A stretch of 32,000 nucleotides of DNA from Trichodesmium erythraeum IMS101 (GTDB lineage: Bacteria > Cyanobacteriota > Cyanobacteriia > Cyanobacteriales > Microcoleaceae). The translations under genes were made by a program, and so were the position numbers. Each line of letters starts with the position of its first letter. Position 1 is the stretch's first letter. The notes below the pieces were generated by a model, which was given only the letters and a program-made list of their open reading frames with translations, made no database searches and was not told the DNA's origin. The stretch spans positions 960,001-992,000 of the forward strand of contig NC_008312.1 in the NCBI RefSeq assembly GCF_000014265.1, read 5' to 3'. Of the stretch, positions 1,521 through 30,763 are shown one piece after another.

Positions 1521-3302
1521 ATGGCAACTATTGAATCTAAAGGCATGAATTTAGAAAAGTTATTTGATGAATTTTATGTTATTCCTGATTACCAGCGCGA
1601 ATATGTTTGGACACAAAAAGAAGTCAATGAATTTATTCAAGACATCTATGAAGAATTTTCTGAACAAACTCAAAACTCTTACCCTGAGTATTTTATTGGC
1701 AGTATAATTGTTTGTGGTCGCGGGGAAAAATTTTATGAAATAATTGATGGCCAGCAACGAATTACTACTGCTTACCTTGTACTATGTGCAATTCGGGATT
1801 ATCTATTAACTATTAATCCTAATGAACCTATTGAAGCATTAAAAAATAAGATTGCTGCTTTGTATACGGATAACTGGGGTAATGACCAGTTTAGACACAA
1901 AGTAGAACTACAATATCAGGAAAGTCGAGGAATACTAGAAAATATAGCTCTACAAGCAAGTGTAGAGACTCTTAGTCCAACTCGCTCTGTTAAAAATATT
2001 CAGAATGCTTATACTGAAATTAGAAGTTTTCTTTACCAATATTTTCAAGTAGATGAACTTGTTGTTTTTAATATCAAAAAGTTTTACGCATATTTTCTTA
2101 AAAATGTTAAGTTAATTCGAGTCAAAACAGCTAGTGTTTCTCATGCTTTGAAAATATATTCAACTCTAAATCATCGTGGTTTAGCCCTAGATGATATGGA
2201 TTTACTCAAAAATTTAATTTTTACTAAAGCTAAATCAACAGATTATGATCAAATCAAAGTAAAATGGAAAACAATGATAGACTTGCTTTATAATCATCAA
2301 GAAAAACCCATGCGTTTTTTGCGCTATTTTATATTAGCCAAATACGCAAAAGATGGGAACTATATTTTGGAAAAAGAAGTCTATGATTGGTTCCTAAATA
2401 ATGAACATATTTGTAGATATAAGACTGAACCGATTCAGTTTGTGAATAATTTACTGAGCTCGGCTCAAGCTTATGTAGCATTTTTAATAGGTAATAATGT
2501 TGATGGTACTGTTAATCGGTATTTGGTAAATATTAGAAATCTTAGTATAAATGTTAGGCAGCATTTAATATTACTTTTAGCTGTTGATAAGTTGCCTAAA
2601 GCTTGTTTTGTTGATCTCTGTAGACAGATAGAGAATTTATTATTTTTGGCAATGTTAACTAGCGATCGCCATAAAAAAGCATTTGATGGCATGATAATTA
2701 AGTGGGCAAGTGAGTTACGTACAATTAGTTCACAAGAGGATTATGATATTTTTATTGCTCAGGAAATTATTCCTAGCAAACAGGGAGTAGCTGATAAATT
2801 TGAAAATACGTTCTATCGACTGAATAAATTATCATTACAGCTATATCAAATTCGATATATTTTGGCAAAGATAACACAATATATAGATGAAATGGCCTGG
2901 GGAACTGTGGGAGGAATTGATGATTTAAGAAACTATGTTTTTAAATTAGAAGTAGAACAAATTTTATCAGAAAACCCTACAAAAGAAGTAGTTTTTGATT
3001 TTGATAAACCTACTGAAATAGTAAACTATAGTCAACGTTTAGGAAATATGACTTTGTTAGAAAGTTCTATTAAATCTGCTATTTTAAATGCTAGTTTTAC
3101 TGAGAAAAAATTAGGTTATACAAAATCTAGATTTTTGTTAACTAGAACTATTGCTGAAGAAATTTCGGTGGGAAACAATACAACTATTAATTTGGCTGTC
3201 AAGGATTTAAAGACATTTGAAAAATGGGATTCTCAAGCAATAGAAACTCGTCAAGAAATTTTAACTCAATTAGCTAAAAAAGTTTGGGATGTTCCTGAGT
3301 AA
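1521..3302 (+). CDS. DUF262 + DUF1524-like two-domain protein (GmrSD / type IV restriction family architecture); C-terminal nuclease motif looks degenerate
   Basis: N-terminal DUF262 hallmarks: IPDYQREYVW and IIDGQQRITT (DGQQR box). The C-terminal part has the DUF1524-like block LGNMTLLESSIKSAILNASFTEKK. VEQILSE sits where the family normally has (E/D)H(I/V)xP. Confidence 0.85.
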   Translation: MATIESKGMNLEKLFDEFYVIPDYQREYVWTQKEVNEFIQDIYEEFSEQTQNSYPEYFIGSIIVCGRGEKFYEIIDGQQRITTAYLVLCAIRDYLLTINPNEPIEALKNKIAALYTDNWGNDQFRHKVELQYQESRGILENIALQASVETLSPTRSVKNIQNAYTEIRSFLYQYFQVDELVVFNIKKFYAYFLKNVKLIRVKTASVSHALKIYSTLNHRGLALDDMDLLKNLIFTKAKSTDYDQIKVKWKTMIDLLYNHQEKPMRFLRYFILAKYAKDGNYILEKEVYDWFLNNEHICRYKTEPIQFVNNLLSSAQAYVAFLIGNNVDGTVNRYLVNIRNLSINVRQHLILLLAVDKLPKACFVDLCRQIENLLFLAMLTSDRHKKAFDGMIIKWASELRTISSQEDYDIFIAQEIIPSKQGVADKFENTFYRLNKLSLQLYQIRYILAKITQYIDEMAWGTVGGIDDLRNYVFKLEVEQILSENPTKEVVFDFDKPTEIVNYSQRLGNMTLLESSIKSAILNASFTEKKLGYTKSRFLLTRTIAEEISVGNNTTINLAVKDLKTFEKWDSQAIETRQEILTQLAKKVWDVPE

Positions 3303-3452: not shown

Positions 3453-3481
3453 TTCCCAAATTCCAGCAAAGCAACTATAAT
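3453..3481 (+). promoter_or_regulatory. Candidate sigma70-type promoter of the first FG-GAP/Calx-beta gene
   Basis: TTCCCA (3453-3458), 17-nt spacer, perfect TATAAT (3476-3481), about 40 nt upstream of the ATG at 3524. By-eye match only. Confidence 0.35.
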
Positions 3482-3523: not shown

Positions 3524-6500
3524 ATGGACGAGGACTTCCAAAATAATACTCCATACTCTCCCGGGGAGAAAGACTGCCTCTTCCCACTAGAAATTAACTA
3601 TCATACTGGTCTAAACCTGGACCCTGAAGTCGCAAGTCCCCTCATAGAAACTGCCTGGTCTCAGGTCAAAGACGAATTAGTTGACTTTATCTTGCTCCCA
3701 GAGTTTAAGGCCAATATTGAAATAAGCTTTGATGAAAAAGTAAATGTGGATTTGGTCAAAGATAACATCAAAGATATTCTGACTGGGGAAAATTTGCCTG
3801 GTATTCAAGTCTTGTCCGCAGCAGACATGAATCCAGCGGTGGGTGCATATGACCCTTTGACAGGTGAGATTTATTTGGCTGATTCTTTATTAGGTGGAAC
3901 TGCTCAAGCAAAAGAGCAGGTCTTGTCAGATCTATCTGGTGTATTGTTGGAAGAGTTGGGGCATCATTTGGACCCCCAGTTGCCTGAGTCGGACTCTCCT
4001 GGAGATGAAGGTGAGTTATTCCGACGTTTGGTGAGAGGAGAGACGTTAGATGAGTCGGAGGTTTTACAACTTCGGGCTGAGGATGATTTTCGAGAAATTA
4101 GGGTATGGGGTGTTTTGGTTGAAGTTGAGGCTACTCAGAAGATAGATTTTGAGGAGTTTGGTCCATTTGAGGTAGATGAGAGACCTAACTGGGTAGCAGT
4201 AGGAGAATTTAATGGAGATGAATTTTTAGATTTGGCTGTGGCGAATGAGAACTCAGATAATGTATCAGTTTTACTAGGAAAAGCTTACAGTAGTTTTGGC
4301 CCAGCAACTAATTTTGATGTGGGAGATAGACCTTGGTCAGTAGGAGTAGGAGAATTTAATGGAGATGACTTTTCTGATTTGGTCGTAACAAGTGGCCCAT
4401 CAGGTCAAGTGTCTATTTTACTAGGAAAGGGTGACGGTGGCTTTGGTCCAGCAACTAATTTTGATGTGGGAGATTCACCTCGTTCTGTGGTAGTAGAAGA
4501 TTTGAATGGAGATGGCTTTTCTGATTTGGTTGTGGTTAACCCATGGTCAGATAAAGTATCGGTGTTATTAGGAGAAGGTAAGGGTAGTTTTGGTTTAGCT
4601 ACTGACTTTAATGTGGGAGATGAACCAGAGTCGTTAGTAGTAGGGGATTTTGATCGAGATAATATTCCTGATTTGGCTGTGGCGAATAAGTTTTCCGACA
4701 ATGTATCGATACTATTAGGAAGGGGTAATGGTAGTTTTGGGCGAGCTAATAATTTTGATGGGGGAGATGGACCGAGTTCTCTGGCAGTAGGAGAATTTAA
4801 TGGAGATAGTTTTTTAGATTTGGCTGTAGGAAACTATTTTTCAGACAATATATCAGTTTTACTAGGAGCTGGTGATGGTAGTTTTGGCTCAGCTACTAAT
4901 TTTAGGGCGGGAGATGAGCCGACTTCAATAGCGGCAGGAGAATTTAATGGAGATGGTTTTTCTGACCTAGTTGTGGCAAATGAGAATTCAGATGATATAT
5001 CAATATTATTAGGAAATGGAAATGGTGGTTTTGGTCCACCTACTAATTTTGACGTGGGAGATGAACCAGAGTCAGTGGCAATAGGAGATTTTAATGGAAA
5101 TGGAATTGCTGATTTGGCTGTGGCGAATGAGTTTTCAGGGAACGTATCTATTTTGATTAACCAAACTTCTATCACTACTGTCCCTAACATTACTATCTCT
5201 GATACGAAAATTAAGGAAGGCAACAGAAATAAAACGGCGGAATTTACAGTAATTTTAGACAATCCTAGTAATGAAATAGTTAAAGTTAACTATACTACAG
5301 CTAATCAATCGGCAAAAGTTAATCAAGACTATAGACTGGCCAAAGGGACTCTGATTTTCCAACCGGGAGAAACGCAACAAACTATAACGGTTCCTATTTT
5401 GGGAGATAGGCGTGACGAAGCTCAGGAAAAGTTTAAACTTAATCTCAGTAGCCCCCAAAATGCAAATCTTAAAGATGCACAAGCTATAGGAACTATTCTT
5501 GATAATGACCCACTTCCGAAAATATCTATCGGAGATGCTAAAGTGACTGAAGGAAATAGGGGTCAGAAAAAGATGACATTTGAAGTGAGGTTGAACAACC
5601 CTAGCGGTAAGACAGTAAGGGTTAATTATGGAACTGTTGAGGGCAGCGCTAAGTCTGGAGAAGATTATCAGGAGAAAAGAGGGGTTGTGAAATTTAAACC
5701 AGGGCAGAAGAAAAAGATAATTAATATTCCGATCTTTGGAGATACTGAGGATGAACAGAATGAGCAGTTTCAGGTAATTCTTAGTCGTGCTAGAAATGCT
5801 AAGTTCTCAGATAAGAAGGCAGTAGGTATGATTCGGGATAATGATGAAGCGGTTCCCAAGGATGAAATAATGCCCCAAATATCTATCGGAGATGCTAAAG
5901 TGACTGAAGGAAATAGGGGTCAGAAAAGGATGGAATTTGAAGTCGAGTTGGATAGTGCTAGTCAGAAAATGGTAAAAGTTAATTACTCTACAGTAGATGG
6001 CAGCGCTAAGTCTGGAGAAGATTATCGGAAGAAAAGTGGGGTGGTGACATTTAAGCCTGGGCAGACGAAAAAGATAGTTAATATTCCGATTTTGGGAGAT
6101 ACCCAGGATGAAGATAATGAGAAGTTTCAGGTACAACTCAGTGGTGCTAAAAATGCTAAGTTCTCAGATAGAAAGGGAGTAGGTATAATTGAAGATAATG
6201 ACAGACCAGTACCAGAGGTTTTTGAGGATGCTATTGATCTAGGAGTTCTTTCCCGGGAGCCTATTTCAGTCGTTGATAAGATTGGGTTTACTGTTGGCCC
6301 TGTGAATCGCAATACGGAGGATTATTTCCGCTTTGAGGTAGAGAAAGAGGGTTCGGTAAGTATTTTTGTGGATAGTTTTGTTCAAGATTTGGGCATTAAA
6401 TTATACGATGAAGAAGAAAGTCTACTTAATCAGTCAAATAAGGGAGGTGACTTAAAGGAAATTGAAACTATTTTAGAGTCTGGTGTTTATTATTTGAAAG

Positions 6501-6562
6501 TTGTCCCAGTGGGAGGTAGTAGAACTAAATATAATTTGAGTGTCAATATTGTTGAGTTTTAA
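3524..6562 (+). CDS. Large repeat protein: N-terminal conserved module, 7 FG-GAP/VCBS blades, 3 Calx-beta domains, PPC (pre-peptidase C-terminal) domain
   Basis: 1012-aa ORF. About nt 4166-5160: seven ~47-aa units with the FNGDGFSDLVV (DxNxDGxxD) signature. About nt 5170-6205: three ~110-aa units with the Calx-beta signature (..ISIGDAKVTEGNRG..F.V.L....V.V.Y.T.DGSAK.G.DY....G...F.PG...K...IPI.GD..DE.NE.F.V.L). About nt 6206-6559: DYFRFEV..G.V.I......DL.IKLYD......N......E.I...L..G.YYLKV, which is PPC-like. No signal peptide is evident. Confidence 0.9.
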   Translation: MDEDFQNNTPYSPGEKDCLFPLEINYHTGLNLDPEVASPLIETAWSQVKDELVDFILLPEFKANIEISFDEKVNVDLVKDNIKDILTGENLPGIQVLSAADMNPAVGAYDPLTGEIYLADSLLGGTAQAKEQVLSDLSGVLLEELGHHLDPQLPESDSPGDEGELFRRLVRGETLDESEVLQLRAEDDFREIRVWGVLVEVEATQKIDFEEFGPFEVDERPNWVAVGEFNGDEFLDLAVANENSDNVSVLLGKAYSSFGPATNFDVGDRPWSVGVGEFNGDDFSDLVVTSGPSGQVSILLGKGDGGFGPATNFDVGDSPRSVVVEDLNGDGFSDLVVVNPWSDKVSVLLGEGKGSFGLATDFNVGDEPESLVVGDFDRDNIPDLAVANKFSDNVSILLGRGNGSFGRANNFDGGDGPSSLAVGEFNGDSFLDLAVGNYFSDNISVLLGAGDGSFGSATNFRAGDEPTSIAAGEFNGDGFSDLVVANENSDDISILLGNGNGGFGPPTNFDVGDEPESVAIGDFNGNGIADLAVANEFSGNVSILINQTSITTVPNITISDTKIKEGNRNKTAEFTVILDNPSNEIVKVNYTTANQSAKVNQDYRLAKGTLIFQPGETQQTITVPILGDRRDEAQEKFKLNLSSPQNANLKDAQAIGTILDNDPLPKISIGDAKVTEGNRGQKKMTFEVRLNNPSGKTVRVNYGTVEGSAKSGEDYQEKRGVVKFKPGQKKKIINIPIFGDTEDEQNEQFQVILSRARNAKFSDKKAVGMIRDNDEAVPKDEIMPQISIGDAKVTEGNRGQKRMEFEVELDSASQKMVKVNYSTVDGSAKSGEDYRKKSGVVTFKPGQTKKIVNIPILGDTQDEDNEKFQVQLSGAKNAKFSDRKGVGIIEDNDRPVPEVFEDAIDLGVLSREPISVVDKIGFTVGPVNRNTEDYFRFEVEKEGSVSIFVDSFVQDLGIKLYDEEESLLNQSNKGGDLKEIETILESGVYYLKVVPVGGSRTKYNLSVNIVEF

Positions 6563-6889
6563 TTGGTGACTATATCAAATTTGCTAGAGTTTGAGTTTTT
6601 CAGTATTCAGGATGAAAAATTTATGGTCTATAATTCAGGACTAATGTAGAAAAACTATATATAGTCTATAAGTTTATTTTATATAAAAGTGGGTTTGCTT
6701 ATTTATAATTTTTGTCGATAAATACTTACGGTCAGAAGGTTTGGAATGTAAATATGCCAGATATAACTTACTACTTTATTTTAAAAATTACCCATTAAAA
6801 CATTTTCTTAAAATTATTTAATGATCATTATTTACTTTTTATAGTATAAGATTATAGTATAAGGTTCTAAATCAAAATCATGACAAGCT

Positions 6890-8791
6890 ATGAATTACGA
6901 AACAGAAAATTACGATCAAGATCAAGGTAGTCAAAACTATCAATATCAAAGTAGTGAAAACTATCAAGATCAAGGCAGTGACAACTATCAAACAAAGACA
7001 GTCAAAGAAAATCCAGTTGCCAAAAATGTGGCTAAAAAGGGTAGGCTTCGTGGTTTAACACAAGCCGATGTGGACAGAAAAGCTGGAAAGGCTAAACGCC
7101 GTAAAGATATGTCAAAAAAAATTGGTGGTTATGAAGAAAAGGATGCTGAAAGGCGAGGTGAGTTGAAAAAGGATTATGAAAACAATACAGATCAGATAAA
7201 GAAAAACGAAGCTGAACGTCAACAAATTGCTGAGGAAGACGCAATCAAACGTCAGGCTGACACGGAAAATAGGCGCAACAAAGTAGCAGCAGATCTGAAG
7301 GAAACCAACGAGGTACGTCTAGAAAATTCTGCTGAATGGGACAGCACGCGTCAAGCTGAATATGCTGCACTAGTTCAAGCTGTAGCTGACAAAATTGCTG
7401 TTTTCCAAGCAGAGATTCTTCAAACTAAAGCTGACACGAAAGATAGGCACGACAAAGTAGTAGCAGATATCAAGGAAACCAACGAGGTACGTCTAGAAAA
7501 TTCTGCTGAATGGGACAAGACACGTCAAGCTGAATATGCTGCACTAGTTCAAGCTGTAGCTGACAAAATTGCTGTTTTCCAAGCAGAGATTCTTCAAACT
7601 AAAGCTGACACGAAAGATAGGCACGACAAAGTAGTAGCAGATATCAAGGAAACCAACGAGGTACGTCTAGAAAATTCTGCTGAATGGGACAAGACACGTC
7701 AAGCTGAATATGCTGCACTAGTTCAAGCTGTAGCTGACAAAATTGCTGTTTTCCAAGCAGAGATTCTTCAAACTAAAGCTGACACGAAAGATAGGCACGA
7801 CAAAGTAGTAGCAGATATCAAGGAAACCAACGAGGTACGTCTAGAAAATTCTGCTGAATGGGACAGCACGCGTCAAGCTGAATATGCTGCACTAGTTCAA
7901 GCTGTAGCTGACAAAATTGCTGCTTTCCAAGCAGAGATTCTTCAAACTAAAGCTGACACGAAAGATAGGCACGACAAAGTAGTAGCAGATATCAAGGAAA
8001 CCAACGAGGTACGTCTAGAAAATTCTGCTGAATGGGACAAGACACGTCAAGCTGAATATGCTGCACTAGTTCAAGCTGTAGCTGACAAAATTGCTGTTTT
8101 CCAAGCAGAGATTCTTCAAACTAAAGCTGACACGAAAGATAGGCACGACAAAGTAGTAGCAGATATCAAGGAAACCAACGAGGTACGTCTAGAAAATTCT
8201 GCTGAATGGGACAAGACACGTCAAGCTGAATATGCTGCACTAGTTCAAGCTGTAGCTGACAAAATTGCTGCTTTCCAAGCAGAGATTCTTCAAACTAAAG
8301 CTGACACGAAAGATAGGCACGACAAAGTAGTAGCAGATATCAAGGAAACCAACGAGGTACGTCTAGAAAATTCTGCTGAATGGGACAAGACACGTCAAGC
8401 TGAATATGCTGCACTAGTTCAAACTGTAGCTGACAAAATTGCTGCTTTCCAAGCAGAGATTCTTCAAACTAAAGCTGACACGAAAGATAGGCACGACAAA
8501 GTAGTAGCAGATATCAAGGAAACCAACGAGGTACGTCTAGAAAATTCTGCTGAATGGGACAGCACGCGTCAAGCTGAATATGCTGCACTAGTTCAAGCTG
8601 TAGCTGACAAAATTGCTGGCTTCAAAGCAGAGATTCTTGAAAGCTTGAATACAGCTATAGAAAAGGCAACGCAAGAGGAAACTCAACGTAAACAAATTGC
8701 AGAAGAAGACAAGCAGGAAAGGGTTGATGCAAATAGTAAACGCCGTAAAGATAGGAATGATCAATTTGTAGATTTCATAGAAGTCTCTTAG
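6890..8791 (+). CDS. Highly charged tandem-repeat protein (predicted all-helical, coiled-coil-like), unknown function
   Basis: 633-aa ORF. Layout: Q/N/Y-rich octapeptide repeats at the N-terminus, a K/R/E-rich linker, 8 x 58-aa near-identical units, and a charged tail. QIAEEDA.. blocks flank the array on both sides. There is no TM segment or signal peptide, and no obvious SD sequence. The coding call rests on the long open frame kept across exact in-frame repeats. Confidence 0.8.
   Translation: MNYETENYDQDQGSQNYQYQSSENYQDQGSDNYQTKTVKENPVAKNVAKKGRLRGLTQADVDRKAGKAKRRKDMSKKIGGYEEKDAERRGELKKDYENNTDQIKKNEAERQQIAEEDAIKRQADTENRRNKVAADLKETNEVRLENSAEWDSTRQAEYAALVQAVADKIAVFQAEILQTKADTKDRHDKVVADIKETNEVRLENSAEWDKTRQAEYAALVQAVADKIAVFQAEILQTKADTKDRHDKVVADIKETNEVRLENSAEWDKTRQAEYAALVQAVADKIAVFQAEILQTKADTKDRHDKVVADIKETNEVRLENSAEWDSTRQAEYAALVQAVADKIAAFQAEILQTKADTKDRHDKVVADIKETNEVRLENSAEWDKTRQAEYAALVQAVADKIAVFQAEILQTKADTKDRHDKVVADIKETNEVRLENSAEWDKTRQAEYAALVQAVADKIAAFQAEILQTKADTKDRHDKVVADIKETNEVRLENSAEWDKTRQAEYAALVQTVADKIAAFQAEILQTKADTKDRHDKVVADIKETNEVRLENSAEWDSTRQAEYAALVQAVADKIAGFKAEILESLNTAIEKATQEETQRKQIAEEDKQERVDANSKRRKDRNDQFVDFIEVS
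6902..6997 (+). repeat. 4 x 24-bp in-frame tandem repeat encoding the octapeptide xSxNYQxQ
   Basis: TENYDQDQ / GSQNYQYQ / SSENYQDQ / GSDNYQTK, read codon by codon from 6902. Confidence 0.85.
7256..8647 (+). repeat. 8 x 174-bp (58-aa) near-perfect tandem repeat inside CDS 6890-8791
   Basis: Unit starts are at 7256, 7430, 7604, 7778, 7952, 8126, 8300 and 8474. Units 2, 3 and 5 read identical. Internal units differ only at three places: aagacac/agcacgc (K/S), gtt/gct (V/A) and gct/act (A/T). The first and last units diverge at their outer edges. Confidence 0.97.
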
Positions 8792-8836
8792 AAGGTTTAG
8801 GCCATTCTCTGGGATTTATCGTTAGATGAATAAGTA

Positions 8837-8871
8837 GTTAATTAAGTAGGTTTGATGCCTACTTAATTAAC
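8837..8871 (+). terminator. Perfect 14-bp stem hairpin 46 nt downstream of the repeat-protein stop (putative terminator)
   Basis: GTTAATTAAGTAGG-tttgatg-CCTACTTAATTAAC. There is no immediately adjacent U-tract; a T-rich stretch follows about 15-25 nt later. Confidence 0.5.
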
Positions 8872-9190
8872 ATAGATAATCTGGATTTTTCTGATTTTTA
8901 ATATATCTTTTCAAAGTAGAAGTTTTGACTCCCCTAAAAGAAGCAATAAGAGAATAGCTATTCTATAAACATTTTTTCAGTAAATAGGGTTGAATAACAT
9001 CAGATAGCTTTTGGTAGAATGAAGCGCCCTACTTTTAATTTTTAACGGATTTTTTACTTTTTGATCTACTTACATCGTGCTCAGTAAAACCGAATCAGGA
9101 CGAATGGCCAGAAAGCCGCTACTGTAGAAAGTTGCCGTAAATTCTAAGTTCTAAGCTTTGACTTTTGAATTATATTGTTTGACTTTTAAT

Positions 9191-9219
9191 TTGACAAGTT
9201 GATTAAAAAGTGCTATGAT
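9191..9219 (+). promoter_or_regulatory. Candidate near-consensus sigma70 promoter of the second FG-GAP/Calx-beta gene
   Basis: TTGACA (9191-9196), 17-nt spacer, TATGAT (9214-9219), about 37 nt upstream of the ATG at 9256. Confidence 0.45.
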
Positions 9220-9255
9220 TGTTGGTTAAGCTTTTTTCTGATTTAATTTAATACT

Positions 9256-12200
9256 ATGACTGAACCCTTTGAAGAAAATAATTCATCGGAGCCTGAGTTT
9301 CCGGATGACCCATTCCCAAGTGTCCACTATCTCCCTGGGGCTGACTCGAACCCTGAGGTTACAGACCCGATGATACAAGGTGCCTGGGGTGAGGTTCGTG
9401 ACGAATTGGCTGATTTTATCTTGGCCCCGGAGTTCGATGACTATATTAAAACGGCTTTTGGTGAAACTGTGGACCCGGAGCTGGCAAAGGAGCAGATCAA
9501 GGATGTTTTGACTGGGGAAAATTTGCCCGAGGTTATTATGTTGCCGGCGGCGGATATGGAGCCGGCGGTGGGTGCCTATGATCCTTTGACTGGTTCAATT
9601 TATTTGGCTGATTCTTTATTGCCTGATACTGATGGGGTTTTGGTGGATGTGCTGTTGGAGGAGTTGGGGCATTTTTTGGACTCTCAGTTGTCTGAGTCGG
9701 ACTCCCCTGGAGATGAGGGTGAGTTATTGGCTGCTTTGGTGAGGGGTGAGGAGTTGACTCAGTTTCAGGTGATGATGCTTCGGGGTCAGGATGATCGGGT
9801 AGATATTTGGGTCGGGGGTGTTGAGGTTGAGGTTGAGGCTAGTGAAAAGGTTGATTTTGAGAAGGCTCGTAATTTTAAGGTGGGAGACAGACCTTGGTCA
9901 GTAGCAGCAGGAGATTTTAATGGAGATGGCATTCCTGATCTGGCTGTGGCGAACGTTGGTTCAGACAACGTATCAGTGTTATTAGGAAAAGGTGACGGTA
10001 GTTTTGGTTCAGCTACTAATTTTCCGGTGGGAGACGGACCTGCGTCAGTAGCAGCAGAAGATTTAAATGGAGATGGCATTCCTGATCTGGCTGTGGCGAA
10101 TATTGACTCAGACAACGTATCAGTGTTATCAGGAAAAGGTGACGGTAGTTTTGGTTCAGCTACTAATTTTCCGGTGGGAGACGGACCAGAGTCAGTAGCA
10201 GTAGGAGATTTTAATGGAGATGGCATTCCTGATCTGGCTGTGGCGAACTGGTTGTCAGACAACGTATCAGTGTTATTAGGAAAAGGTGACGGTAGTTTTG
10301 GTTCAGCTACTAATTTTCCGGTGGGAGACAGACCTGCGTCAGTAGCAGCAGAAGATTTAAATGGAGATGGCATTCCTGATCTGGCTGTGGCGAACTGGTT
10401 GTCAGACAACGTATCAGTGTTATCAGGAAAAGGTGACGGTAGTTTTGGTTCAGCTACTAATTTTCCGGTGGGAGATCAACCTTTGTCAGTAGCAGTAGGA
10501 GATTTTAATGGAGATGGCATTCCTGATCTGGCTGTGGCGAACAGATCTTCAGACAACGTATCAGTGTTATCAGGAAAAGGTGACGGTAGTTTTGGTTCAG
10601 CTACTAATTTTCCGGTGGGAGACTTTCCTAGCTCAGTAGCAGCAGAAGATTTAAATGGAGATGGCATTCCTGATCTGGCTGTGGCGAACTGGTTGTCATA
10701 CAACGTATCAGTGTTATCAGGAAAAGGTGACGGTAGTTTTGGTTCAGCTACTAATTTTCCGGTGGGAGATCAACCTTTGTCAGTAGCAGCAGAAGATTTA
10801 AATGGAGACGGCATTCCTGATCTGGCTGTGGCGAACAGGGGGGATAACAACGTATCCATCCTCATCAACAAAACCCCCATAACCATCATCCCCAACATCA
10901 CCATCTCCGACACCAAGGTCACCGAAGGCAACACAAATAAAACCGCCAAATTCACCGTCACCCTAGACAACCCCACAACCACCACAGTCAAAGTCAACTA
11001 CACCACAGCCAACCAAACCGCCCAAGTCAACCAAGACTACAAACTCACCAAAGGCACCCTCACCTTCCGACCAGGAGAAACGAACAAAAACATCACAGTT
11101 CCCATCTTGGGAGATAACCGAGACGAACCCCAGGAAAAATTCCGAGTCGCTCTGAGCCGCCCCCAAAATGCCAACATCAAAGATGGGAGAGCTACAGGCA
11201 CCATCGTTGATAACGACCCAGTTCCCCAAATATCCATCGGCGATGCCAAAATTACGGAAGGAAACAGAGGTCAGAAAAACATAGAATTTGAAGTCAAATT
11301 AAACAACCCCAGCGGGAAAACAGTGAGAGTAAATTATGGAACCCAAGAGGGCAGCGCCAAGTCAGGAAAAGATTTTCGAAATAAAAGGGGAGTCCTGACA
11401 TTCCAACCAGGGCAGACCAAAAAAATAGTGAACATTCCCATTTTAGGAGATCGGGTTGATGAAAATAACGAGGAGTTTCAAGTCAAACTCAGCCGTGCCA
11501 GAAATGGAAATTTGTCAGATAAAACAGCGGTCGGCAGAATTATTGATAACGACGAAACAATACCCCAAATATCCATCAGGGATGCCAAAGTGACGGAAGG
11601 AAACAGGGGTAAGAAACAGATGAAGTTTGAAGTCGAGCTCAACAACCCGAGCACGAAAACAGTGAGAGTAAATTACGCCACAGTAGATGGCAGCGCCAAG
11701 TCAGGAAAAGATTTTCAAAATAAAAGGGGAGTGGTGACATTCCAACCAGGGCAGAGGAAAAAGATAGTGAATATTCCCATTTTGGGAGATCGGGTTGATG
11801 AAAATAACGAGCAGTTTCAAGTCAAACTCAGCGGTGCCAGAAATGGTAAGTTGTCAGATAAAACAGCGGTCGGCAGAATTATTGATAACGACGAAGGGGT
11901 TCCCAAAGATCAGATAACTCCCCAAATATCCATCAGGGATGCCAAAATTACTGAAGGAAACCAGGGAGAGAAAAACATGAAGTTTGAGGTCAAGTTAGAT
12001 AATAGTAGCAGTGAAGTAGTGAAAGTTAATTATGAAACTGTTGACGGTAGCGCGAAGTCAGGAAAAGATTATTTGAAGAAAAAGGGAGTCCTGAAATTCC
12101 AACCAGGGGAGACGAAAAAGACAGTAAATGTTCCTATTTTGGGAGATACTGTTGATGAAAAGGATGAGAAATTTCAGGTGAAACTCAGCGGCGCTAAAAA

Positions 12201-12612
12201 TGGTAAGTTATCAGATGCAAAAGCAGTGGGTATTATTCGGGATGACGAAAAACCAGTACCAGATGAATTCAAAAATGCTGTAGATATAGGAATTCTGGAG
12301 CTAGAGCAAATTACCAAGGTTGATGATATTGGTTTCTCCGAAGGACAACAGCGAAATACAGTAGATCATTATCGTTTTGAGGTCAAAAAAGAAGGTTCAG
12401 TGAATATTATTGTAGATGGCTTCTTTCAAGACTTAGGAATTAAATTGTATGATGATGATGGCAGTCTACTCAACCAGTCAAACGAGGAGGGCAATATCAC
12501 CAAAGAGAAAATTCAAACTATTTTAGATCCTGGTTTTTATTATTTAGAAGTTTTTCCTGTAGGAGCGGGTGCAACTGACTATAGGTTAATTGTTAATATT
12601 GTTGAATTCTAA
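9256..12612 (+). CDS. Paralog of 3524-6562: N-terminal conserved module, 7 FG-GAP/VCBS blades, 4 Calx-beta domains, PPC domain
   Basis: 1118-aa ORF, collinear with the first paralog. Shared blocks: AVGAYDPLTG.IYLADSLL, LLEELGH.LD, SDSPGDEGEL, and the C-terminus ..VNIVEF. It is 106 aa longer, which equals one extra Calx-beta unit. Confidence 0.9.
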   Translation: MTEPFEENNSSEPEFPDDPFPSVHYLPGADSNPEVTDPMIQGAWGEVRDELADFILAPEFDDYIKTAFGETVDPELAKEQIKDVLTGENLPEVIMLPAADMEPAVGAYDPLTGSIYLADSLLPDTDGVLVDVLLEELGHFLDSQLSESDSPGDEGELLAALVRGEELTQFQVMMLRGQDDRVDIWVGGVEVEVEASEKVDFEKARNFKVGDRPWSVAAGDFNGDGIPDLAVANVGSDNVSVLLGKGDGSFGSATNFPVGDGPASVAAEDLNGDGIPDLAVANIDSDNVSVLSGKGDGSFGSATNFPVGDGPESVAVGDFNGDGIPDLAVANWLSDNVSVLLGKGDGSFGSATNFPVGDRPASVAAEDLNGDGIPDLAVANWLSDNVSVLSGKGDGSFGSATNFPVGDQPLSVAVGDFNGDGIPDLAVANRSSDNVSVLSGKGDGSFGSATNFPVGDFPSSVAAEDLNGDGIPDLAVANWLSYNVSVLSGKGDGSFGSATNFPVGDQPLSVAAEDLNGDGIPDLAVANRGDNNVSILINKTPITIIPNITISDTKVTEGNTNKTAKFTVTLDNPTTTTVKVNYTTANQTAQVNQDYKLTKGTLTFRPGETNKNITVPILGDNRDEPQEKFRVALSRPQNANIKDGRATGTIVDNDPVPQISIGDAKITEGNRGQKNIEFEVKLNNPSGKTVRVNYGTQEGSAKSGKDFRNKRGVLTFQPGQTKKIVNIPILGDRVDENNEEFQVKLSRARNGNLSDKTAVGRIIDNDETIPQISIRDAKVTEGNRGKKQMKFEVELNNPSTKTVRVNYATVDGSAKSGKDFQNKRGVVTFQPGQRKKIVNIPILGDRVDENNEQFQVKLSGARNGKLSDKTAVGRIIDNDEGVPKDQITPQISIRDAKITEGNQGEKNMKFEVKLDNSSSEVVKVNYETVDGSAKSGKDYLKKKGVLKFQPGETKKTVNVPILGDTVDEKDEKFQVKLSGAKNGKLSDAKAVGIIRDDEKPVPDEFKNAVDIGILELEQITKVDDIGFSEGQQRNTVDHYRFEVKKEGSVNIIVDGFFQDLGIKLYDDDGSLLNQSNEEGNITKEKIQTILDPGFYYLEVFPVGAGATDYRLIVNIVEF
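9871..10875 (+). repeat. 7 x 147-bp (49-aa) highly similar tandem repeat encoding the FG-GAP blades of the second paralog
   Basis: Unit starts are at 9871, 10018, 10165, 10312, 10459, 10606 and 10753. Long runs are identical between units (e.g. aatggagatggcattcctgatctggctgtggcgaac, gtatcagtgttatcaggaaaaggtgacggtagttttggttcagctactaattttccggtgggaga). Confidence 0.95.
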
Positions 12613-13081
12613 TTAGGTTGCTCAATTATTTTAGCCTAGAAATTAGGTTTAGATCAATAAAATTGTGTAATGTTTGGATATTATATGGTAGTCAAAAGTC
12701 AACCTCTGCCTTTATCCCCTCCCCAGGCATAGAAGTCAAACCTCACCTTTTATTCCCCCATTGAGGAGAAGTGAAAAAGTTGCTCTAGAAGGAGGAGGTT
12801 TTAAACCAAATTTTTTGGTAAATGAAGATAATTTTTATAGTATAAATACTGAACCAAATTACGGGCTTTATACTAATTTTCATGTAACAAATTGAAGCGC
12901 GGAATGTGGGTGAAATGTTTCAGCAAGTCCATCCTATTGATAAACCCTAGATGAAAAGTTTTTCATCCAGGGATAAAGAGGTTTTGTCTAGTTGGTAAAA
13001 ACTTCTCCAAGTTTATAGCTTTCCAAAAATGCCAACTTAAAAAGAGCAAGATAAGAGAATTAGAACCTTTTCTAGACACAT

Positions 13082-14287
13082 CTAATGATGATGATGGTGG
13101 TGGTGACCATGATGGTGATGATCGCCGTGAGAATGACCATGGTCTCCATCGTGACTATGACCATGAGTCGACTTTGCCTGTGCTAGGGCCAAAGAAGGGT
13201 TAACAGCTAAAGCATTTTCACTCAATAATTCCTCAATATAAAGATTGGCCCACTCCCCAGCCATCTGCAAAAATTCTGAGCGGTCATTAACACAAGGCAT
13301 TTGCCGATAAGTTACTTCAGGATATTTTCGACGCAAACCTTCAATAATATGCTCAACATCTAATAAGGTTTCGTGATTTTCCGTAGCAAAACCAATAGGC
13401 ATAAATATAATAGCTGTTGCACCTAATTCTATCAGATTTTGAGCTGCAGTTTTAGCATCTGGTTGAGTCCATTCAATAAGTGGAGTATCATGGTTTAACC
13501 AACCCACAGAAATTAAAGCAAAACGATTAATTAAACGTTCCCGCACCAACTCATAAAGTGTTTGACTTTCATCAATTCCAGAAGTAAAACCTTTAGCTTT
13601 ATGAGGGCAGCCATGATTTGTTAAAACAATACCAATTTGAGATGGTAAATGAGCAACCGCTAAATCATTAGCAATCTGTTCTTCTACCATTTTTGCCATT
13701 AAATTAATATAATCAGGTTCATTATAAAAAGAAGGAATATAACGTTGACCTTTAATCCAATGTTCATTTTTATCTGCTAATTTTACCAATGCTTTATTAA
13801 CTTGTTCAACAGCAATACCACTAGTAAAAATAGAATCAACTACTAACAAAGGATAAATCAATAACTTATCAAAACCTTCAGATTTAATTTGATTTAATAC
13901 TTGTTCTGGTAAGTAGGGAGCGCAGAAATTAAAAGCTTTAAAAACTTTAACCCGATCGCCCCATTTATCTTGAAGATTTTTTTCAATTCCTGCTCTTTGA
14001 CTTTCAAAAATAGCATTATGAGGAGAGATAAAATTACCATGTTGATGACTCCATTCATGGAGGTCAAAAATAGCCAATAACTTTGCTAAAGGAGGATATA
14101 TCCAGGTAGGAACAGGAGCAAACTTAGCGGTCAGTAAATTTAATGCTTGTTCATTATAATTGGCAAAATCTTCATAGCTTTCTACCTCGCCATATCCCAT
14201 CAATAATACTGCGACTCTGTCTTGTCTGTTTTGGTTTGGAGATATAGAATTTTTTCGATTTTCAATTTTTTCTGGGGTTGTAACCAC
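13082..14287 (-). CDS. Ferrochelatase-fold (class II) metal chelatase with a C-terminal His-rich tail
   Basis: GTG start at 14287 with AAGGAG 7 nt upstream. VAVLLMGYGEVESYEDF resembles the ferrochelatase N-terminus (LLVMAYGTP..). VLTNHGCPHK corresponds to the (S/T)AHS(L)P His motif. PIGFATENHETLLDVE corresponds to GF(V)xDHxExLxExD. The tail is STHGHSHDGDHGHSHGDHHHHGHHHHHHH. The metal and substrate are not determinable from sequence. Confidence 0.8.
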   Translation of the reverse strand: MVTTPEKIENRKNSISPNQNRQDRVAVLLMGYGEVESYEDFANYNEQALNLLTAKFAPVPTWIYPPLAKLLAIFDLHEWSHQHGNFISPHNAIFESQRAGIEKNLQDKWGDRVKVFKAFNFCAPYLPEQVLNQIKSEGFDKLLIYPLLVVDSIFTSGIAVEQVNKALVKLADKNEHWIKGQRYIPSFYNEPDYINLMAKMVEEQIANDLAVAHLPSQIGIVLTNHGCPHKAKGFTSGIDESQTLYELVRERLINRFALISVGWLNHDTPLIEWTQPDAKTAAQNLIELGATAIIFMPIGFATENHETLLDVEHIIEGLRRKYPEVTYRQMPCVNDRSEFLQMAGEWANLYIEELLSENALAVNPSLALAQAKSTHGHSHDGDHGHSHGDHHHHGHHHHHHH

Positions 14288-14681: not shown

Positions 14682-15308
14682 CACAGTTTTGAGCAGATGA
14701 AATTTTCATCTATTGACCCTTAACTTTTAACTCTTAACTTTTGAGTTTTGAGAGCTGAGATAATTTCATGAAATTACAGCTCATGTGGGAAAAATGATGT
14801 TGTGGGGGGCATCTTGCACCCGTGGGCGTACCTCATAAACCTGAAATATGCTGTAATTTAGCGCCACAGTTTTAAGCCAAGAAAATATTTATCCACAATT
14901 TTTAAGTTTTGAGAGCTGAAATAATTTCCGGAAATTAATTTAGTGTGACAGTTTTAAGTCAATAAAATCTTCATCCATAACTTTTTACTTTTAACTTTTA
15001 CAGCATATTTCGGGAAAATGATGTACAGAGTAAATAGTGAAAATAATTTAGTAGCTGTACTTGATAACAACAAAAAGCGCTGTAGCTTTTAACTTTTAAC
15101 TTTTAACCTTTAACTTTTAACCTTTAACTTTTAACTTTTAACCTTTAACCTTTAACTTTTAACTTTTAACTTTTAACTTTTAACTTTTAACCTTTAACCT
15201 TTAACTTTTAACTTTTAACTTTTAACTTTTAACTTTTAATTTTTAACTTTTAATTTTTAACTTTTAACTTTTAACTTTTGAGTAATGGGAAATAATTTCC
15301 TGAAATTA
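14682..15308. repeat. Three copies of a modular intergenic repeat, each ending in a 16-nt palindrome TAATTTC-NN-GAAATTA
   Basis: Module A: cacagttttgagcagatgaaattttcatc (14682), cacagttttaagccaagaaaatatttatcc (14866), gacagttttaagtcaataaaatcttcatcc (14947). Module B is a run of AACTTTT-type heptamers of variable length. Module C: gttttgagagctgaGataatttcATgaaatta (14745-14776), gttttgagagctgaAataatttcCGgaaatta (14906-14937), cttttgagtaatgggaaataatttcCTgaaatta (15275-15308). Confidence 0.8.
15086..15279. repeat. Heptanucleotide tandem array (about 27-28 copies of AACTTTT with AACCTTT and AATTTTT variants), STRR-like
   Basis: Period 7 read directly: cttttaa cttttaa cttttaa cctttaa ... There is no ORF. 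It lies in the 1.1-kb spacer between the chelatase gene and ORF 15384. Confidence 0.95.
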
Positions 15309-17383: not shown

Positions 17384-17941
17384 ATTAAAATTTAAGAGTC
17401 AAACTGAGTCAGGCAAAGGATATAACCTAGAAGACATAAAGGAACAAATATCAAGCCTCATTAATGAGCTAGAATCAAATGCTTTTCTCAGGTTAATTTA
17501 TTTCAATTTCTAACTGTTCGTTTGATTCCAAAAGGCTTTTGGGATTAATTAAATATCCGGCTAATTTTTTATGTTTTCAAAACACAGGACTAATGGATCT
17601 GGGTGACATTCAAAGCCATAAACTGGAGCATCATAAGCAGGATCTAGTGTCATTGAGTCAATGCATCACTAGCTCCGAGCTCTAAGATAGTTTTGACTTT
17701 AGCCTGAGAAATGTGTGTGATAATCATAGAATGCAAATAAATACCAGAGTTTCCAGTTGACATCAATGAACCTCCTAATTACTCATAGTTTAATTGGCTC
17801 AAGTTTCAGGACAAAACCCCCGTCTTTTAAAAGGGTAATTCCATCTAATTTTAGATATTAATTTAACACCGACATTCCGCAGATATTCATACATCTTTAT
17901 GTAGATTGACATTTTCTAAGTAGATACGATAAAATATAGTA

Positions 17942-18120
17942 TTTAAAGAAGTAAAAACTTGAGTAAGTATTTAGACTCAATAAAAAAAAACCTCAAGCTG
18001 TTATTGTAGATAACAAGGTGGAGAATAAACAAGAGTAAAAAATATCAATAGAAGTGACTAATATAAACCACTTAGGTAATGTAGTTAGCGTAATATTTAT
18101 GCTAACTACATTTTCTTTTT
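17942..18120 (+). ncRNA. Candidate ~180-nt small RNA defined by a near-consensus promoter and an intrinsic terminator
   Basis: TTGACA (17906-17911), 18-nt spacer, TAAAAT (17930-17935). Terminator: 12-bp stem AATGTAGTTAGC (18078-18089) / GCTAACTACATT (18101-18112), followed by TTCTTTTT. There is no ATG-initiated ORF of note between them. An internal hairpin TTGAGT-N10-ACTCAA lies near 17959-17980. The ends are predicted, not mapped. Confidence 0.35.
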
Positions 18121-18903
18121 GTCTAAAGTCCAAATATATCCGAAAAACAATTAGTTATAGTATTTACAATTCAAGATAACGGTACATTATATATAGAATA
18201 CCTGCCTAAGTCCTAATAAATCTAATATAAATCTAATATAAAAGTTAATATTTGGTTCCAAAATTAATATTAGAAATCTATTAATTTTATAGATTGCTAT
18301 TAGGCAAAATTCAACTTATATTAGTATCTGTTGATAATATATATTGATCAGGTGTATTTACCTTAAAATAGCTTGAGCTGACTTAGGATTTTCTGGCCTG
18401 CTCTTGTCTTGCTTACTTGATACAAACAGGGATCACTAGACATAGTTGAACCTATAACATTAGATGCTTATAAACCCTTTATCAAAGCTAGTATTGATAT
18501 TGCCATGAGTTCCAATAATCAGGACTTAGGCACGGGAACTGCATCCTATGAGAGCGAATATGATTTGCAACTATGGTCTTGAGATTACCTATCCAGTAAG
18601 GGCGATTTGAAACTCTACTCATTTAGCAGCATAGCCTCAATTACACCTGATCGTTTATCTAGTGGAAGTTGAACTATGAAGTTCTAAAAACGAGTTTCTT
18701 AGACAAAACTTCAGGGAACACTTGAGGATATAGTTTATCTAGTAACAGTCAGGCTACTTCACACTTATGCCAGTCAGGAATGGTTTTGTTGCTTTTATTG
18801 TGATTGGTTTTACTGCAATAAAAATCCATTCCTGGCTTATTTCTAGTAATTCTCTAAACTGCAACACAAGCAAAGGAGTAAAAAAAAGGAGTAAAAAAAA
18901 ATA

Positions 18904-19263
18904 GTGAAACGAACTTTCTGCAGAAGCTTGCCAGCTTTTTTGATGACAACTGTGTTGATGCTAATAATTGTGTTATAGCCCGCCATTACAGCAAATGGAG
19001 CCATAGCTTAGACTCAAAAGAGTAATTATGCTCTCGATCAAACCGGAGCAAGCTTGGTACATTGCGATCTACACTTTGTAGACAAAGAGGATAAGTTCAT
19101 TGATATTAATGCAGATACTGAAGAGGCAAAAAGACCCATATGGACTGCATATACAAGGGATAATTTCAATCAGGAAAGTATCGAGGATCTAAAACAATAT
19201 TCTTTTATACATATCTCAGGAATATTGTTTCAGATAGGTTCCGCCAAGGCAAATTCACCCTAA
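18904..19263 (+). pseudogene. Possible small secreted-protein gene interrupted by two in-frame TAG codons
   Basis: GTG at 18904 with AGGAG upstream opens a signal-peptide-like VKRTFCRSLPAFLMTTVLMLIIVL. The frame then reads TAG (18976-18978), PAITANGAIA, TAG (19009-19011), and runs in the same frame into listed ORF 19054-19263. Confidence 0.3.
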
Positions 19264-20267
19264 TTTTTTTTCGGAAGTGATTTAGACTTAAAAGCTTATC
19301 CCACAAACTTTTTAACTTGCTATTCTCCTTGGGTACTCTATAAACACCAAGGTAATTTTTTGATGGGCCCTCGTTTCCGGATTTTTCTCACTCGTAAGCA
19401 AGAAAAAAAACTACTGAAACTTAGAACTGAGGATTTACCACAGAAAGTTAAAGACCGACCAGAGGTCATCAGCTTTCTGGGAATGATGACAATTCAATAC
19501 TTTCCGGATCCAGGCATTACCGCTATACATAGTGCAAAAAATTGTTATTTTTCCGATGAAGCCACTATAATTAGTTTAGTGACCTGAATCCTGACTTGAC
19601 TTTTTGTACAATGCCTAGTAATTGAATAAATAAAAGCAGTAATAAATTTTCGTAGAAATTAAACCGTACCACCACCCCACCTGAAAACTGACACCTACCA
19701 CTTACTAGGTTTTTAGGCGTCTTGTCACCCTTTCAGTGTTTTTACCTTGAATTAACCGTTTTTCTGACATACATAATAGGTTTTAGCTATTTTTATTTCC
19801 CTTGGTATTTCCCTTGTTAATCATGGTTTGGTGCCGTTTTCGGTATCAAAAATCTTAAATCTCAAATAGCTGCAATGCTTACTCTGCAAACGTTTCATTA
19901 TAATCATAAATAATACCAAGTTCGCCAAATGTGAGAAGGTATTTTTTCAAGTTACAGCCTTTACTCAATGTCCTGTTAGGGAATGGGATAAGCCTGCTTT
20001 TATATCCGGATATCACCTGAGCACAATTAATTTACTACATATACAAGACTACCGGAATAAACGAGTAGAGAATAAATCAAGAATAAAAAAAATTAAATAC
20101 TTTTATAGAAATAATATCAAAGAATCCGGAGTTTTAAATTATATCATAGGAAAATAGAATATTAACCGACTAACAATGGAAATGCTTACCAAAGTAAAAA
20201 ATTATCAATTTACAATTTCAAATAGCAACCATTAAGGGCAAAATCAAATAAAATTTATATAAAATCT

Positions 20268-29970: not shown

Positions 29971-30763
29971 TCTGGTTGTAGATAATTATAAAGTTCCTTT
30001 TGTTGTCAAAAAAATGTGGGATTCTTAAGTAAGCCACACTCTTACATAAACTGCCTAGATACAAGACAAATTATTGATGTTTATGTACAATTGCCCTGAC
30101 TATTGAAAATTAAAAATTGAAACATCAACATTGAGTCAAAATTACTAACTGTTGTATAGAATTTTGAGGTTAGTTCTGTCTATATTCTGCACAACAACGG
30201 TAAAAAATTAAAGATAAATAATTTTTCAACCCAAGAGTATAATAGGATGATATCTAAAATTTTGCTGAGTGATACAATCAAGAATAATTTATAATAAATG
30301 TCTACCTTATGGTAGAACAAAAAAACAAATAGTTTTAACTGAAAAACATTTAAGCGAATTATTTTAAGATTATCTAATAATCAAAAAAATGACTTTCATT
30401 CAATAAGTGGTAAATTTGCTATAGTAAATATTTTTAACTTAGAGCTGATTGAAAAACTTAGCTGGGATTTTTATCCTGCCTAGATTTTAGTAATTTGGGG
30501 TGTACAGGACAAAAAATTGCACAAAATTTAAGGGTAGCAATAAATTTAGCTTTTTAATATCTACTTAATAAATCAGCTCTTAAAACTACCAAACCCTTAG
30601 CTTTGATCAACTCCTTGGAAATTCTTGAACCTAAACCTAAGTTAAAGTATTCCTTTAGAGGTGTTAAAAATACTCTGGGTGATGGAAAAGGCTAAAAAAT
30701 TTATTTCAGCAAATTATCCTCACCTGCTTAAAAATTATTACCATTTGCAGAATAAATTTCCTT

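Follow-up and report, generated by a model that had tools for sequence, protein, structure and literature searches.

In a 32,000-nucleotide stretch of the Trichodesmium erythraeum IMS101 genome (contig NC_008312.1, positions 960,001 to 992,000 of the forward strand; hereafter the window, from whose first letter all coordinates count), two paralogous genes, here called A and B, bracket a third gene, M. We read the products of A and B as Sec-independent, calcium-dependent surface adhesins whose N-terminal domain, the head, serves in export, surface retention or processing, with M linked to them by position only, and to this reading as a whole we give an even chance. A and B are tandem paralogues in a cyanobacterial family whose proteins are leaderless, acidic and cysteine-poor and carry calcium-binding-type modules, and the two are plausible components of the Trichodesmium cell surface. 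Trichodesmium supplies much of the new nitrogen in the ocean, and its colony formation and dust capture rest on a cell-surface chemistry about whose genes little is known. The three genes are:

3524-6562, plus strand: gene A, 1012 amino acids (aa), with a head module, a seven-blade FG-GAP region, three Calx-beta domains and a PPC-like end
6890-8791, plus strand: gene M, 633 aa, with a Q/N/Y-rich disordered start, a basic patch, helical 58-aa repeats and a conserved DRNDQFV end
9256-12612, plus strand: gene B, 1118 aa, with a head module, a seven-blade FG-GAP region, four Calx-beta domains and a PPC-like end

The coordinates and common strand of these open reading frames (ORFs) agree with the original prediction, made from the letters of the window; A and B, called giant there, are large only. 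Their paralogy and common architecture are borne out by an alignment that runs end to end (64% identity, BLASTP E = 0) and by their Pfam domains, and the blocks AVGAYDPLTG.IYLADSLL, LLEELGH.LD and SDSPGDEGEL, said to be conserved in the N-terminal module, occur in A and B alike. The parts of the two proteins are as follows:

3524-4138, plus strand: head module of A, aa 1-205, with EELGH at aa 143
9256-9870, plus strand: head module of B, aa 1-205, with EELGH at aa 135
4139-5167, plus strand: FG-GAP region of A, seven 49-aa blades; Pfam FG-GAP 1.8e-41, six FG-GAP/FG-GAP_3 stretches
9871-10887, plus strand: FG-GAP region of B, seven blades; Pfam FG-GAP 6.8e-43, seven FG-GAP/FG-GAP_3 stretches
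5183-6199, plus strand: three Calx-beta domains of A, aa 554-892; Pfam 3.7e-57, three stretches
10891-12249, plus strand: four Calx-beta domains of B, aa 546-998; Pfam 9.9e-80, four stretches
6317-6559, plus strand: PPC-like C-terminal domain of A, aa 932-1012; Pfam PPC 24.6 bits against a cut-off of 25.9
12358-12609, plus strand: C-terminal domain of B, like PPC and the ColG collagen-binding domain; Pfam PPC 25.8 bits against 25.9

Profile searches upheld the FG-GAP and Calx-beta assignments, with Pfam E-values of 1e-41 to 1e-80 for FG-GAP/FG-GAP_3 and Calx-beta in the two proteins. The seven blades claimed for each repeat with an exact 49-aa period in both (the loops of A lie at aa 228, 277, 326, 375, 424, 473 and 522), and the region is predicted to form a seven-bladed propeller of the integrin-alpha type, the blades of B matching integrin alpha-V weakly in sequence (E 3e-4); no beta-subunit-like gene was found in the window. 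The DxNxDGxxD loop ascribed to every blade is canonical in all seven blades of B, whereas in A all seven fit a relaxed pattern and two the strict one, four having Glu at the first position and one reading DFNGNGIAD. At the DNA level, Tandem Repeats Finder gives the blades of A a 147-bp period with 6.5 copies and 71% matches. Those of B are homogenised, with 147-bp units 91% identical and a 294-bp super-period of two blades (9870-10836; region in A, 4193-5154), and this high likeness in comparison with A suggests recent gene conversion within B. The Calx-beta counts of three and four likewise hold (PF03160 at 192 bits in A and 265 in B, gathering cut-off 27), and the nearest solved relative is the calcium-binding domain of the exchanger NCX1 (E 1.9e-16). 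The PPC-type domain is a marginal call, since both scores fall under the cut-off of PF04151; it is backed by a weak match of the last ~80 residues of B to the collagen-binding domain of the clostridial collagenase ColG (1nqd, 4hpk; E 7e-4), and in other head-bearing proteins the PPC score in Pfam reaches 1.2e-30. Both proteins do share the VNIVEF ending, which is the final strand of this domain; orthologues terminate in ...YRLSLNLI. This C-terminal part, like PPC and the collagenase domain, is a candidate binding domain of an adhesin-type body, which would bind matrix, particles or neighbouring trichomes.

Neither protein has a recognisable signal peptide or transmembrane helix, as the original prediction had it: a hydrophobic N-terminus is absent, and no 19-residue Kyte-Doolittle score exceeds 1.3 (maximum 1.1). 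The net charge is -82 for A and -71 for B, and A has one cysteine and B none. A motif search of A and B for the RTX repeat (GGxGxD), a GG leader and HExxH found none of the three, and M has neither the RTX repeat nor a GG leader. It is on the calcium-binding modules, the strong net negative charge and the scarcity of cysteine that we base the view that A and B most likely act outside the cell. They would leave it independently of Sec, most likely through an exporter of the type I kind, built from an ATP-binding cassette (ABC) protein, a membrane fusion protein (MFP) and TolC and encoded elsewhere, and their calcium-binding modules would fold in seawater.

The head (residues 1 to ~205) is an unnamed domain that is absent from the published descriptions of cyanobacterial FG-GAP/Calx-beta proteins. 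It has no match in Pfam (2025 copy) or NCBIfam (2026 copy), and sequence and profile searches of the PDB gave chance-level matches only (myeloperoxidase, L/F-transferase). An exhaustive search found it in 2,642 protein clusters at E<=1e-3 and in 1,445 at E<=1e-10, with mostly cyanobacterial hosts. The signature of the family is LLEExGHxxDxxxNxxDxPGDEG, and E135, E136, G138, H139, G152, D153, E154 and D180 (B numbering) are invariant among 31 diverse members. Where the HExxH motif has its first His, the family has Glu throughout (EExGH), both A and B reading EELGH. An AlphaFold2 (AF2) model of the B head, built from 42 sequences (predicted local distance difference test, pLDDT, 86; predicted template-modelling score, pTM, 0.81), places three strands before the EELGH helix. 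The top matches of this model in a Foldseek search of the PDB were all zincins and all weak, the best being deuterolysin (probability 0.98, E 0.03, template-modelling score 0.44-0.50), with AsaP1, selecase, abylysin, anthrax lethal factor and GtgA among the others; in the viral library the leading matches are SprT-like and IrrE-like proteins, and the head family gives weak Pfam matches to SprT-like, M90 and Tox-MPTase3. A zincin-like fold in which Glu replaces the first zinc-ligand His is, on this modelling, moderately supported.

Such a fold raises the question of catalysis, and we consider it unlikely that the head is an active metallopeptidase, either making A and B secreted proteases whose body targets substrates or cleaving its own chain. 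The first zinc-ligand His is always Glu, and no significant sequence-level relation joins the head to any peptidase family, even though E136 at the catalytic position, H139 and the candidate third ligands D149/D153 are invariant or nearly so. Zincin-like topology, with aspzincins as the best fold matches, does speak for a peptidase, as does the Asp ligand of the M35 aspzincins, whose spacing is similar to that of the Asp in the head, and the second, internal copies of the head might delimit cleavage units of a polyprotein. A peptidase head would nevertheless be redundant in those members that also carry a full canonical peptidase domain (M10, S8, M23). Peptidase_M10 matches in the family were considered as support for a protease head and rejected, because they fall on separate canonical HExxHxxGxxH metzincin domains elsewhere in the proteins.

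The payloads carried behind the head are very diverse. Among 47 long members, Pfam finds RTX in 12, PPC in 11, FG-GAP_3 in nine and Calx-beta in eight, besides PA14, lipase, SBBP, CARDB, S8, M23 and M10 domains. The head starts within the first 60 residues in 113 of 149 domains. A hydrophobic N-terminus is present in three of 109 long members and a transmembrane-like segment in four, with a median of 0% cysteine and a net charge of -7.3 per 100 aa. Because these 109 proteins are nearly all leaderless and free of transmembrane segments, the missing export signal is, as far as sequence can tell, a trait of the whole head family and not a peculiarity of the A/M/B locus. Of the nine RTX-bearing members listed, six have their final RTX nonapeptide 82-125 residues short of the C-terminus, and an RTX block near the C-terminus is the classic layout of type I substrates (PMC3034196).

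The head is also found on plasmids. In Nostoc sp. UHCC 0870 a plasmid locus (L104) codes for a protein of 3,212 aa (3531-13169, minus strand) in which the head is combined with Ig-like and VWA domains and with 14 RHS repeats, a colicin-E3 "Cytotoxic" domain forming the C-terminus. On the same strand and 3' of this gene, an ORF of 84 aa (2918-3172, minus) could be the immunity gene for the Rhs/colicin-E3 toxin. Another plasmid-borne head sits on a YD/RTX/CARDB protein, and plasmid alpha of Anabaena PCC 7120 encodes a head-bearing protein of 3,083 aa. One and the same head thus precedes payloads that are unrelated to one another (RTX proteins, metzincins, subtilases, lipases, Rhs/colicin-E3), and ligand binding is therefore a less likely function for it than export, surface retention or processing. 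By analogy, its behaviour recalls that of the N-terminal domains which polymorphic toxins share for trafficking or processing. A more far-reaching proposal, which we regard as doubtful, is that the EExGH...D.PGDEG head marks an export, retention or self-processing step, so far undescribed, that thousands of leaderless giant exoproteins, adhesins and Rhs toxins, chiefly cyanobacterial, have in common, with A and B as adhesin cargo and M as an exposed surface partner that diversifies under selection.

These family members also bear on the idea that A and B are never exported and bind calcium in the cytoplasm or periplasm, an idea to which we give hardly any credence. It would account simply for the lack of a signal peptide, a transmembrane helix and a nearby transporter gene, but all the domain types of the A/B body are known from extracellular proteins, A and B are strongly acidic in a family largely free of cysteine, and among the members of that family are an Rhs toxin and RTX proteins laid out as type I substrates. 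With exported adhesins as the preferred reading, the question becomes the route. A and B share with type I substrates the absence of an N-terminal signal peptide, an acidic character and few cysteines. To our knowledge, the C-terminal type I secretion signal has no reliable sequence signature. In a comparison set of 80 loci that encode homologues of the head, one in a metagenome-assembled genome (MAG) of Acaryochloris (L069) has genes for HlyD, a peptidyl-prolyl isomerase and an ABC exporter with cyclic nucleotide-binding and C39 domains directly upstream of a head-module gene (4985-11773, plus strand) and on the same strand, the head protein also bearing a peptidoglycan-binding domain; it is the sole type I-like adjacency in the set.

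Several observations weigh against adhesins exported by a type I-like route. Two defining features of such substrates are missing from A and B, which have no RTX repeats and no linked exporter genes; their C-terminus is a folded beta domain, where an unstructured signal is usual. There are no ABC or MFP genes within the 32-kb window, and the claim that it holds no secretion genes stood up to a Pfam scan and inspection of the neighbourhood. ABC exporters make up two of the 115 immediate neighbours at the 80 loci, one locus in 80 is type I-like, and no exporter, immunity or regulator gene recurs beside the head-bearing genes across the set. An internal second copy of the head motif in 23 of 159 listed proteins fits ill with a purely N-terminal plug, and the assignment of the head to the zincins is a weak one (Foldseek E 0.03, no PDB sequence match, Glu for the first His). 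Searches of the literature gave nothing specific on the expression, localisation or binding of A, M or B, or on the head. We therefore take the type I route of A and B as a lead, not a result; like the function of the head and adhesion itself, it is something that we infer. Observed directly are the architecture and paralogy of A and B, the lack of export signals, the breadth of the head family, the limits of synteny and the contrast in divergence between M and its flanks.

M, described at the outset as a 633-aa charged repeat protein between A and B without an export signal, is just that (21% D+E, 17% K+R), and it has no transmembrane helix. From its N-terminus it consists of a disordered Q/N/Y-rich start, the basic patch KKGRLRGLT, the repeats, and the end DRNDQFVDFIEVS. 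The repeats form one array:

7256-8642, plus strand: tandem array of M, 174-bp (58-aa) unit, 8.0 copies, 97% identity, in frame

The label coiled coil did not survive. AF2 draws helices of ~45-50 residues over most of the protein, with about one break per repeat, at low confidence (mean pLDDT 50), and there is no significant hydrophobic periodicity of 3.5-3.6 residues, since 672 of 2000 shuffles reach the same power. A search of the protein collection with the whole of M returned 8,000 word candidates, none significant, which probably reflects saturation by charged helical proteins; comparisons with Pfam, the PDB, phages and Joint Genome Institute metagenomes gave no relative either. A GvpC-like gas-vesicle repeat protein, in which repeat number varies likewise, was considered for M and dropped, as there is no Pfam Gas_vesicle_C match.

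The original prediction saw in the three genes one surface or matrix module. The order A, M and start of B is contiguous in T. erythraeum-like contigs (L001, L085, L086 and L090; 99.2-99.96% identity) and in a second Trichodesmium clade (L093, L094, L097 and L098), so that synteny extends to two clades of the genus, but not to Okeania and the other loci: none of the 80 has a detectable relative of M, the nearest orthologues included. The closest orthologues outside Trichodesmium, in Okeania sp. KiyG1 and a Cyanobacteriota tar-biofilm MAG, are single-copy and stand in other contexts without M, and no locus of the 80 has a pair of separate head-bearing genes. Two further paralogues of Trichodesmium (L083 and L084) also lie in other contexts without M. 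The first, in Trichodesmium sp. ALOHA_ZT_67 (9907-10371), adjoins genes for HetZ (upstream), Sua5 and a LarC-like protein; it is 93% identical in DNA to the first 368 nt of B and 94 nt upstream, and the homology ends abruptly at window position 9162. The second is 83% identical to B in DNA. Directly 5' of A lies a gene for a GmrSD-type (type IV) restriction endonuclease (1521-3302, plus strand), and this adjacency is maintained in every Trichodesmium contig seen.

The locus also has promoter-like sites and a hairpin, all called from consensus matches only:

3453-3481, plus strand: promoter-like site 5' of A, TTCCCA-17-TATAAT, 10 of 12 positions
6831-6858, plus strand: promoter-like site 5' of M, 9 of 12 positions
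9191-9219, plus strand: promoter-like site 5' of B, TTGACA-17-TATGAT with TG, 11 of 12 positions
8837-8871, no strand assigned: palindromic hairpin, 14-bp stem, 46 nt past the M stop codon

The hairpin is a putative terminator. The promoter-like region of A is common to the upstream sequence of L084, and that of B (from 9162) to L083, at 93%. The absence of M from the 80 loci and from beside L083 and L084, the separate promoter-like sites and the hairpin therefore leave position as the only tie of M to A and B. It is thus improbable, in our view, that A, M and B form a joint surface or matrix unit in which M is a helical tether or partner of both propellers. The common strand, the order kept in independent assemblies of two Trichodesmium clades and the extreme divergence of M, typical of exposed proteins, would suit such a unit; against them stand, besides the points just given, intergenic gaps of 327 bp (A-M) and 464 bp (M-B) and the lack of an export signal in M. 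The module claim as a whole is supported in part only.

Within that genus, M diverges strongly while its surroundings do not. The M proteins of the two clades are 27-31% identical in aa, in contrast to their flanks: 98.8% nt identity for GmrSD, 97.8% nt and 96.6% aa for A, 99.6% nt for the M-B spacer and 96.8% for the start of B. In the second clade M has retained its ORF, the MNYE/Q-H-rich start, a KKGRG.T patch and the DRND.FV end, and its interior consists of different repeats with an 84-aa unit. The A-M spacer (6563-6889) is 88% identical between the clades as against 99.6% for the M-B spacer; the divergent tract therefore begins 5' of M and runs to ~98 nt short of the M stop codon. Because the second clade keeps the frame, start, patch and end around a replaced interior, M is to all appearances a real, fast-evolving, Trichodesmium-restricted gene and a divergence hotspot.

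It is very unlikely, by contrast, that M is a chance or decaying ORF, raised by tandem-repeat expansion in the spacer of the A/B duplication, and no functional protein. Of 20 differences between the copies of the repeat, 19 are non-synonymous, the start is of low complexity, AF2 confidence is low and a homologue of M was found in no database searched, all of which speaks for this explanation. Against it stand that a 1.9-kb frame stays open in DNA of ~40% guanine and cytosine, that the repeat length is divisible by three, and that the second clade has at the same site an open frame with new repeats and the same start, KKGRG.T patch and DRND.FV end. Copy numbers of the M repeat taken from short-read contigs are unreliable, as such assemblies break or collapse in the array. 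Exact look-up of M and B was empty because assemblies break in the repeats; exact B peptides had no match in the genome-contig collection, which apparently does not hold the genome of the window itself.

Proteins identical or at least 96.6% identical to A are found in many Trichodesmium MAGs, where the NCBI product name of A-type proteins is "FG-GAP-like repeat-containing protein". Elsewhere in the window, a class II chelatase of 401 aa (13082-14287, minus strand; Pfam Ferrochelatase 3e-37, CbiX 2e-6) has a long His-rich C-terminal tail, HGHSHDGDHGHSHGDHHHHGHHHHHHH, and resembles a long CbiX-type chelatase more than the standard cyanobacterial ferrochelatase. An intergenic heptanucleotide array, CTTTTAA, occupies 15086-15279 (27.7 copies, 93% matches), and a TPR and CHAT (caspase-like) protein of 970 aa with a hydrophobic N-terminal segment is encoded at 21336-24248 (minus strand). 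Rfam and tRNA scans of the window gave no matches, and the regions 17400-20250 and 30000-32000 hold no ORF of at least 80 aa and no Rfam or tRNA match.

The head domain and the hypervariable M are the parts of this locus most worth following up. At least 2,600 protein clusters of extracellular appearance and without an export signal carry the head, an Rhs/colicin-E3 toxin among them. Should it act in export, anchoring or processing, this would account for the handling of a large class of cyanobacterial exoproteins and provide a simple sequence marker by which to find them. M offers a strain marker, and it lends itself to tests of diversifying selection or repeat turnover.

The body of A and B is of a kind already known, that of cyanobacterial integrin-alpha/beta4-like proteins. 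Bacterial homologues of integrin-alpha-type FG-GAP and of integrin-beta4/Calx-beta have been reported in cyanobacteria (Chouhan et al. 2011, PMC3192720), and the combination of FG-GAP and Calx-beta has been noted there since 1999 (May & Ponting 1999, as cited in PMC3192720). Like A and B, these proteins have seven FG-GAP blades with calcium-binding loops followed by Calx-beta domains, although the zincin-like head and the ColG-like end are not part of such descriptions. A and B are not integrins, because they have no transmembrane anchor, beta subunit or cytoplasmic tail. The likeness of the last ~80 residues of B to the collagen-binding domain of ColG, a member of the PPC superfamily, carries marginal scores.

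Type I RTX exoproteins and adhesins (PMC3034196; MpAFP, PMC3492233) resemble A and B in being leaderless, acidic, poor in cysteine, modular and of calcium-binding type, and many head-bearing proteins share with them RTX blocks 82-125 residues from the C-terminus. They differ from A and B, which have a beta-domain end and neither the GGxGxD repeat nor linked ABC/MFP genes. The head is taken to be unrelated in sequence to the N-terminal retention modules of RTX adhesins, with which it was not compared directly. The aspzincins (M35; deuterolysin 1eb6, AsaP1 2x3a) have, as does the head, a motif helix and an invariant Asp ~10-14 residues further on; unlike them, the head has Glu for the first His, no GTxDxxYG and no significant sequence match, and the structural likeness (template-modelling score 0.44-0.50) comes at 11-14% identity. 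Among described systems, the nearest analogue is the PVC-metallopeptidase, which has been interpreted in toxins as the marker of a trafficking route and as an autoprocessing peptidase (Zhang et al. 2012, PMC3482391). Like the head, it is a zincin-like domain found on very different payloads, polymorphic toxins included; it bears HExxHxxQ-E and stands just before the toxin domain, whereas the head bears EExGHxxD...D.PGDEG, usually occupies the extreme N-terminus and is mostly cyanobacterial.

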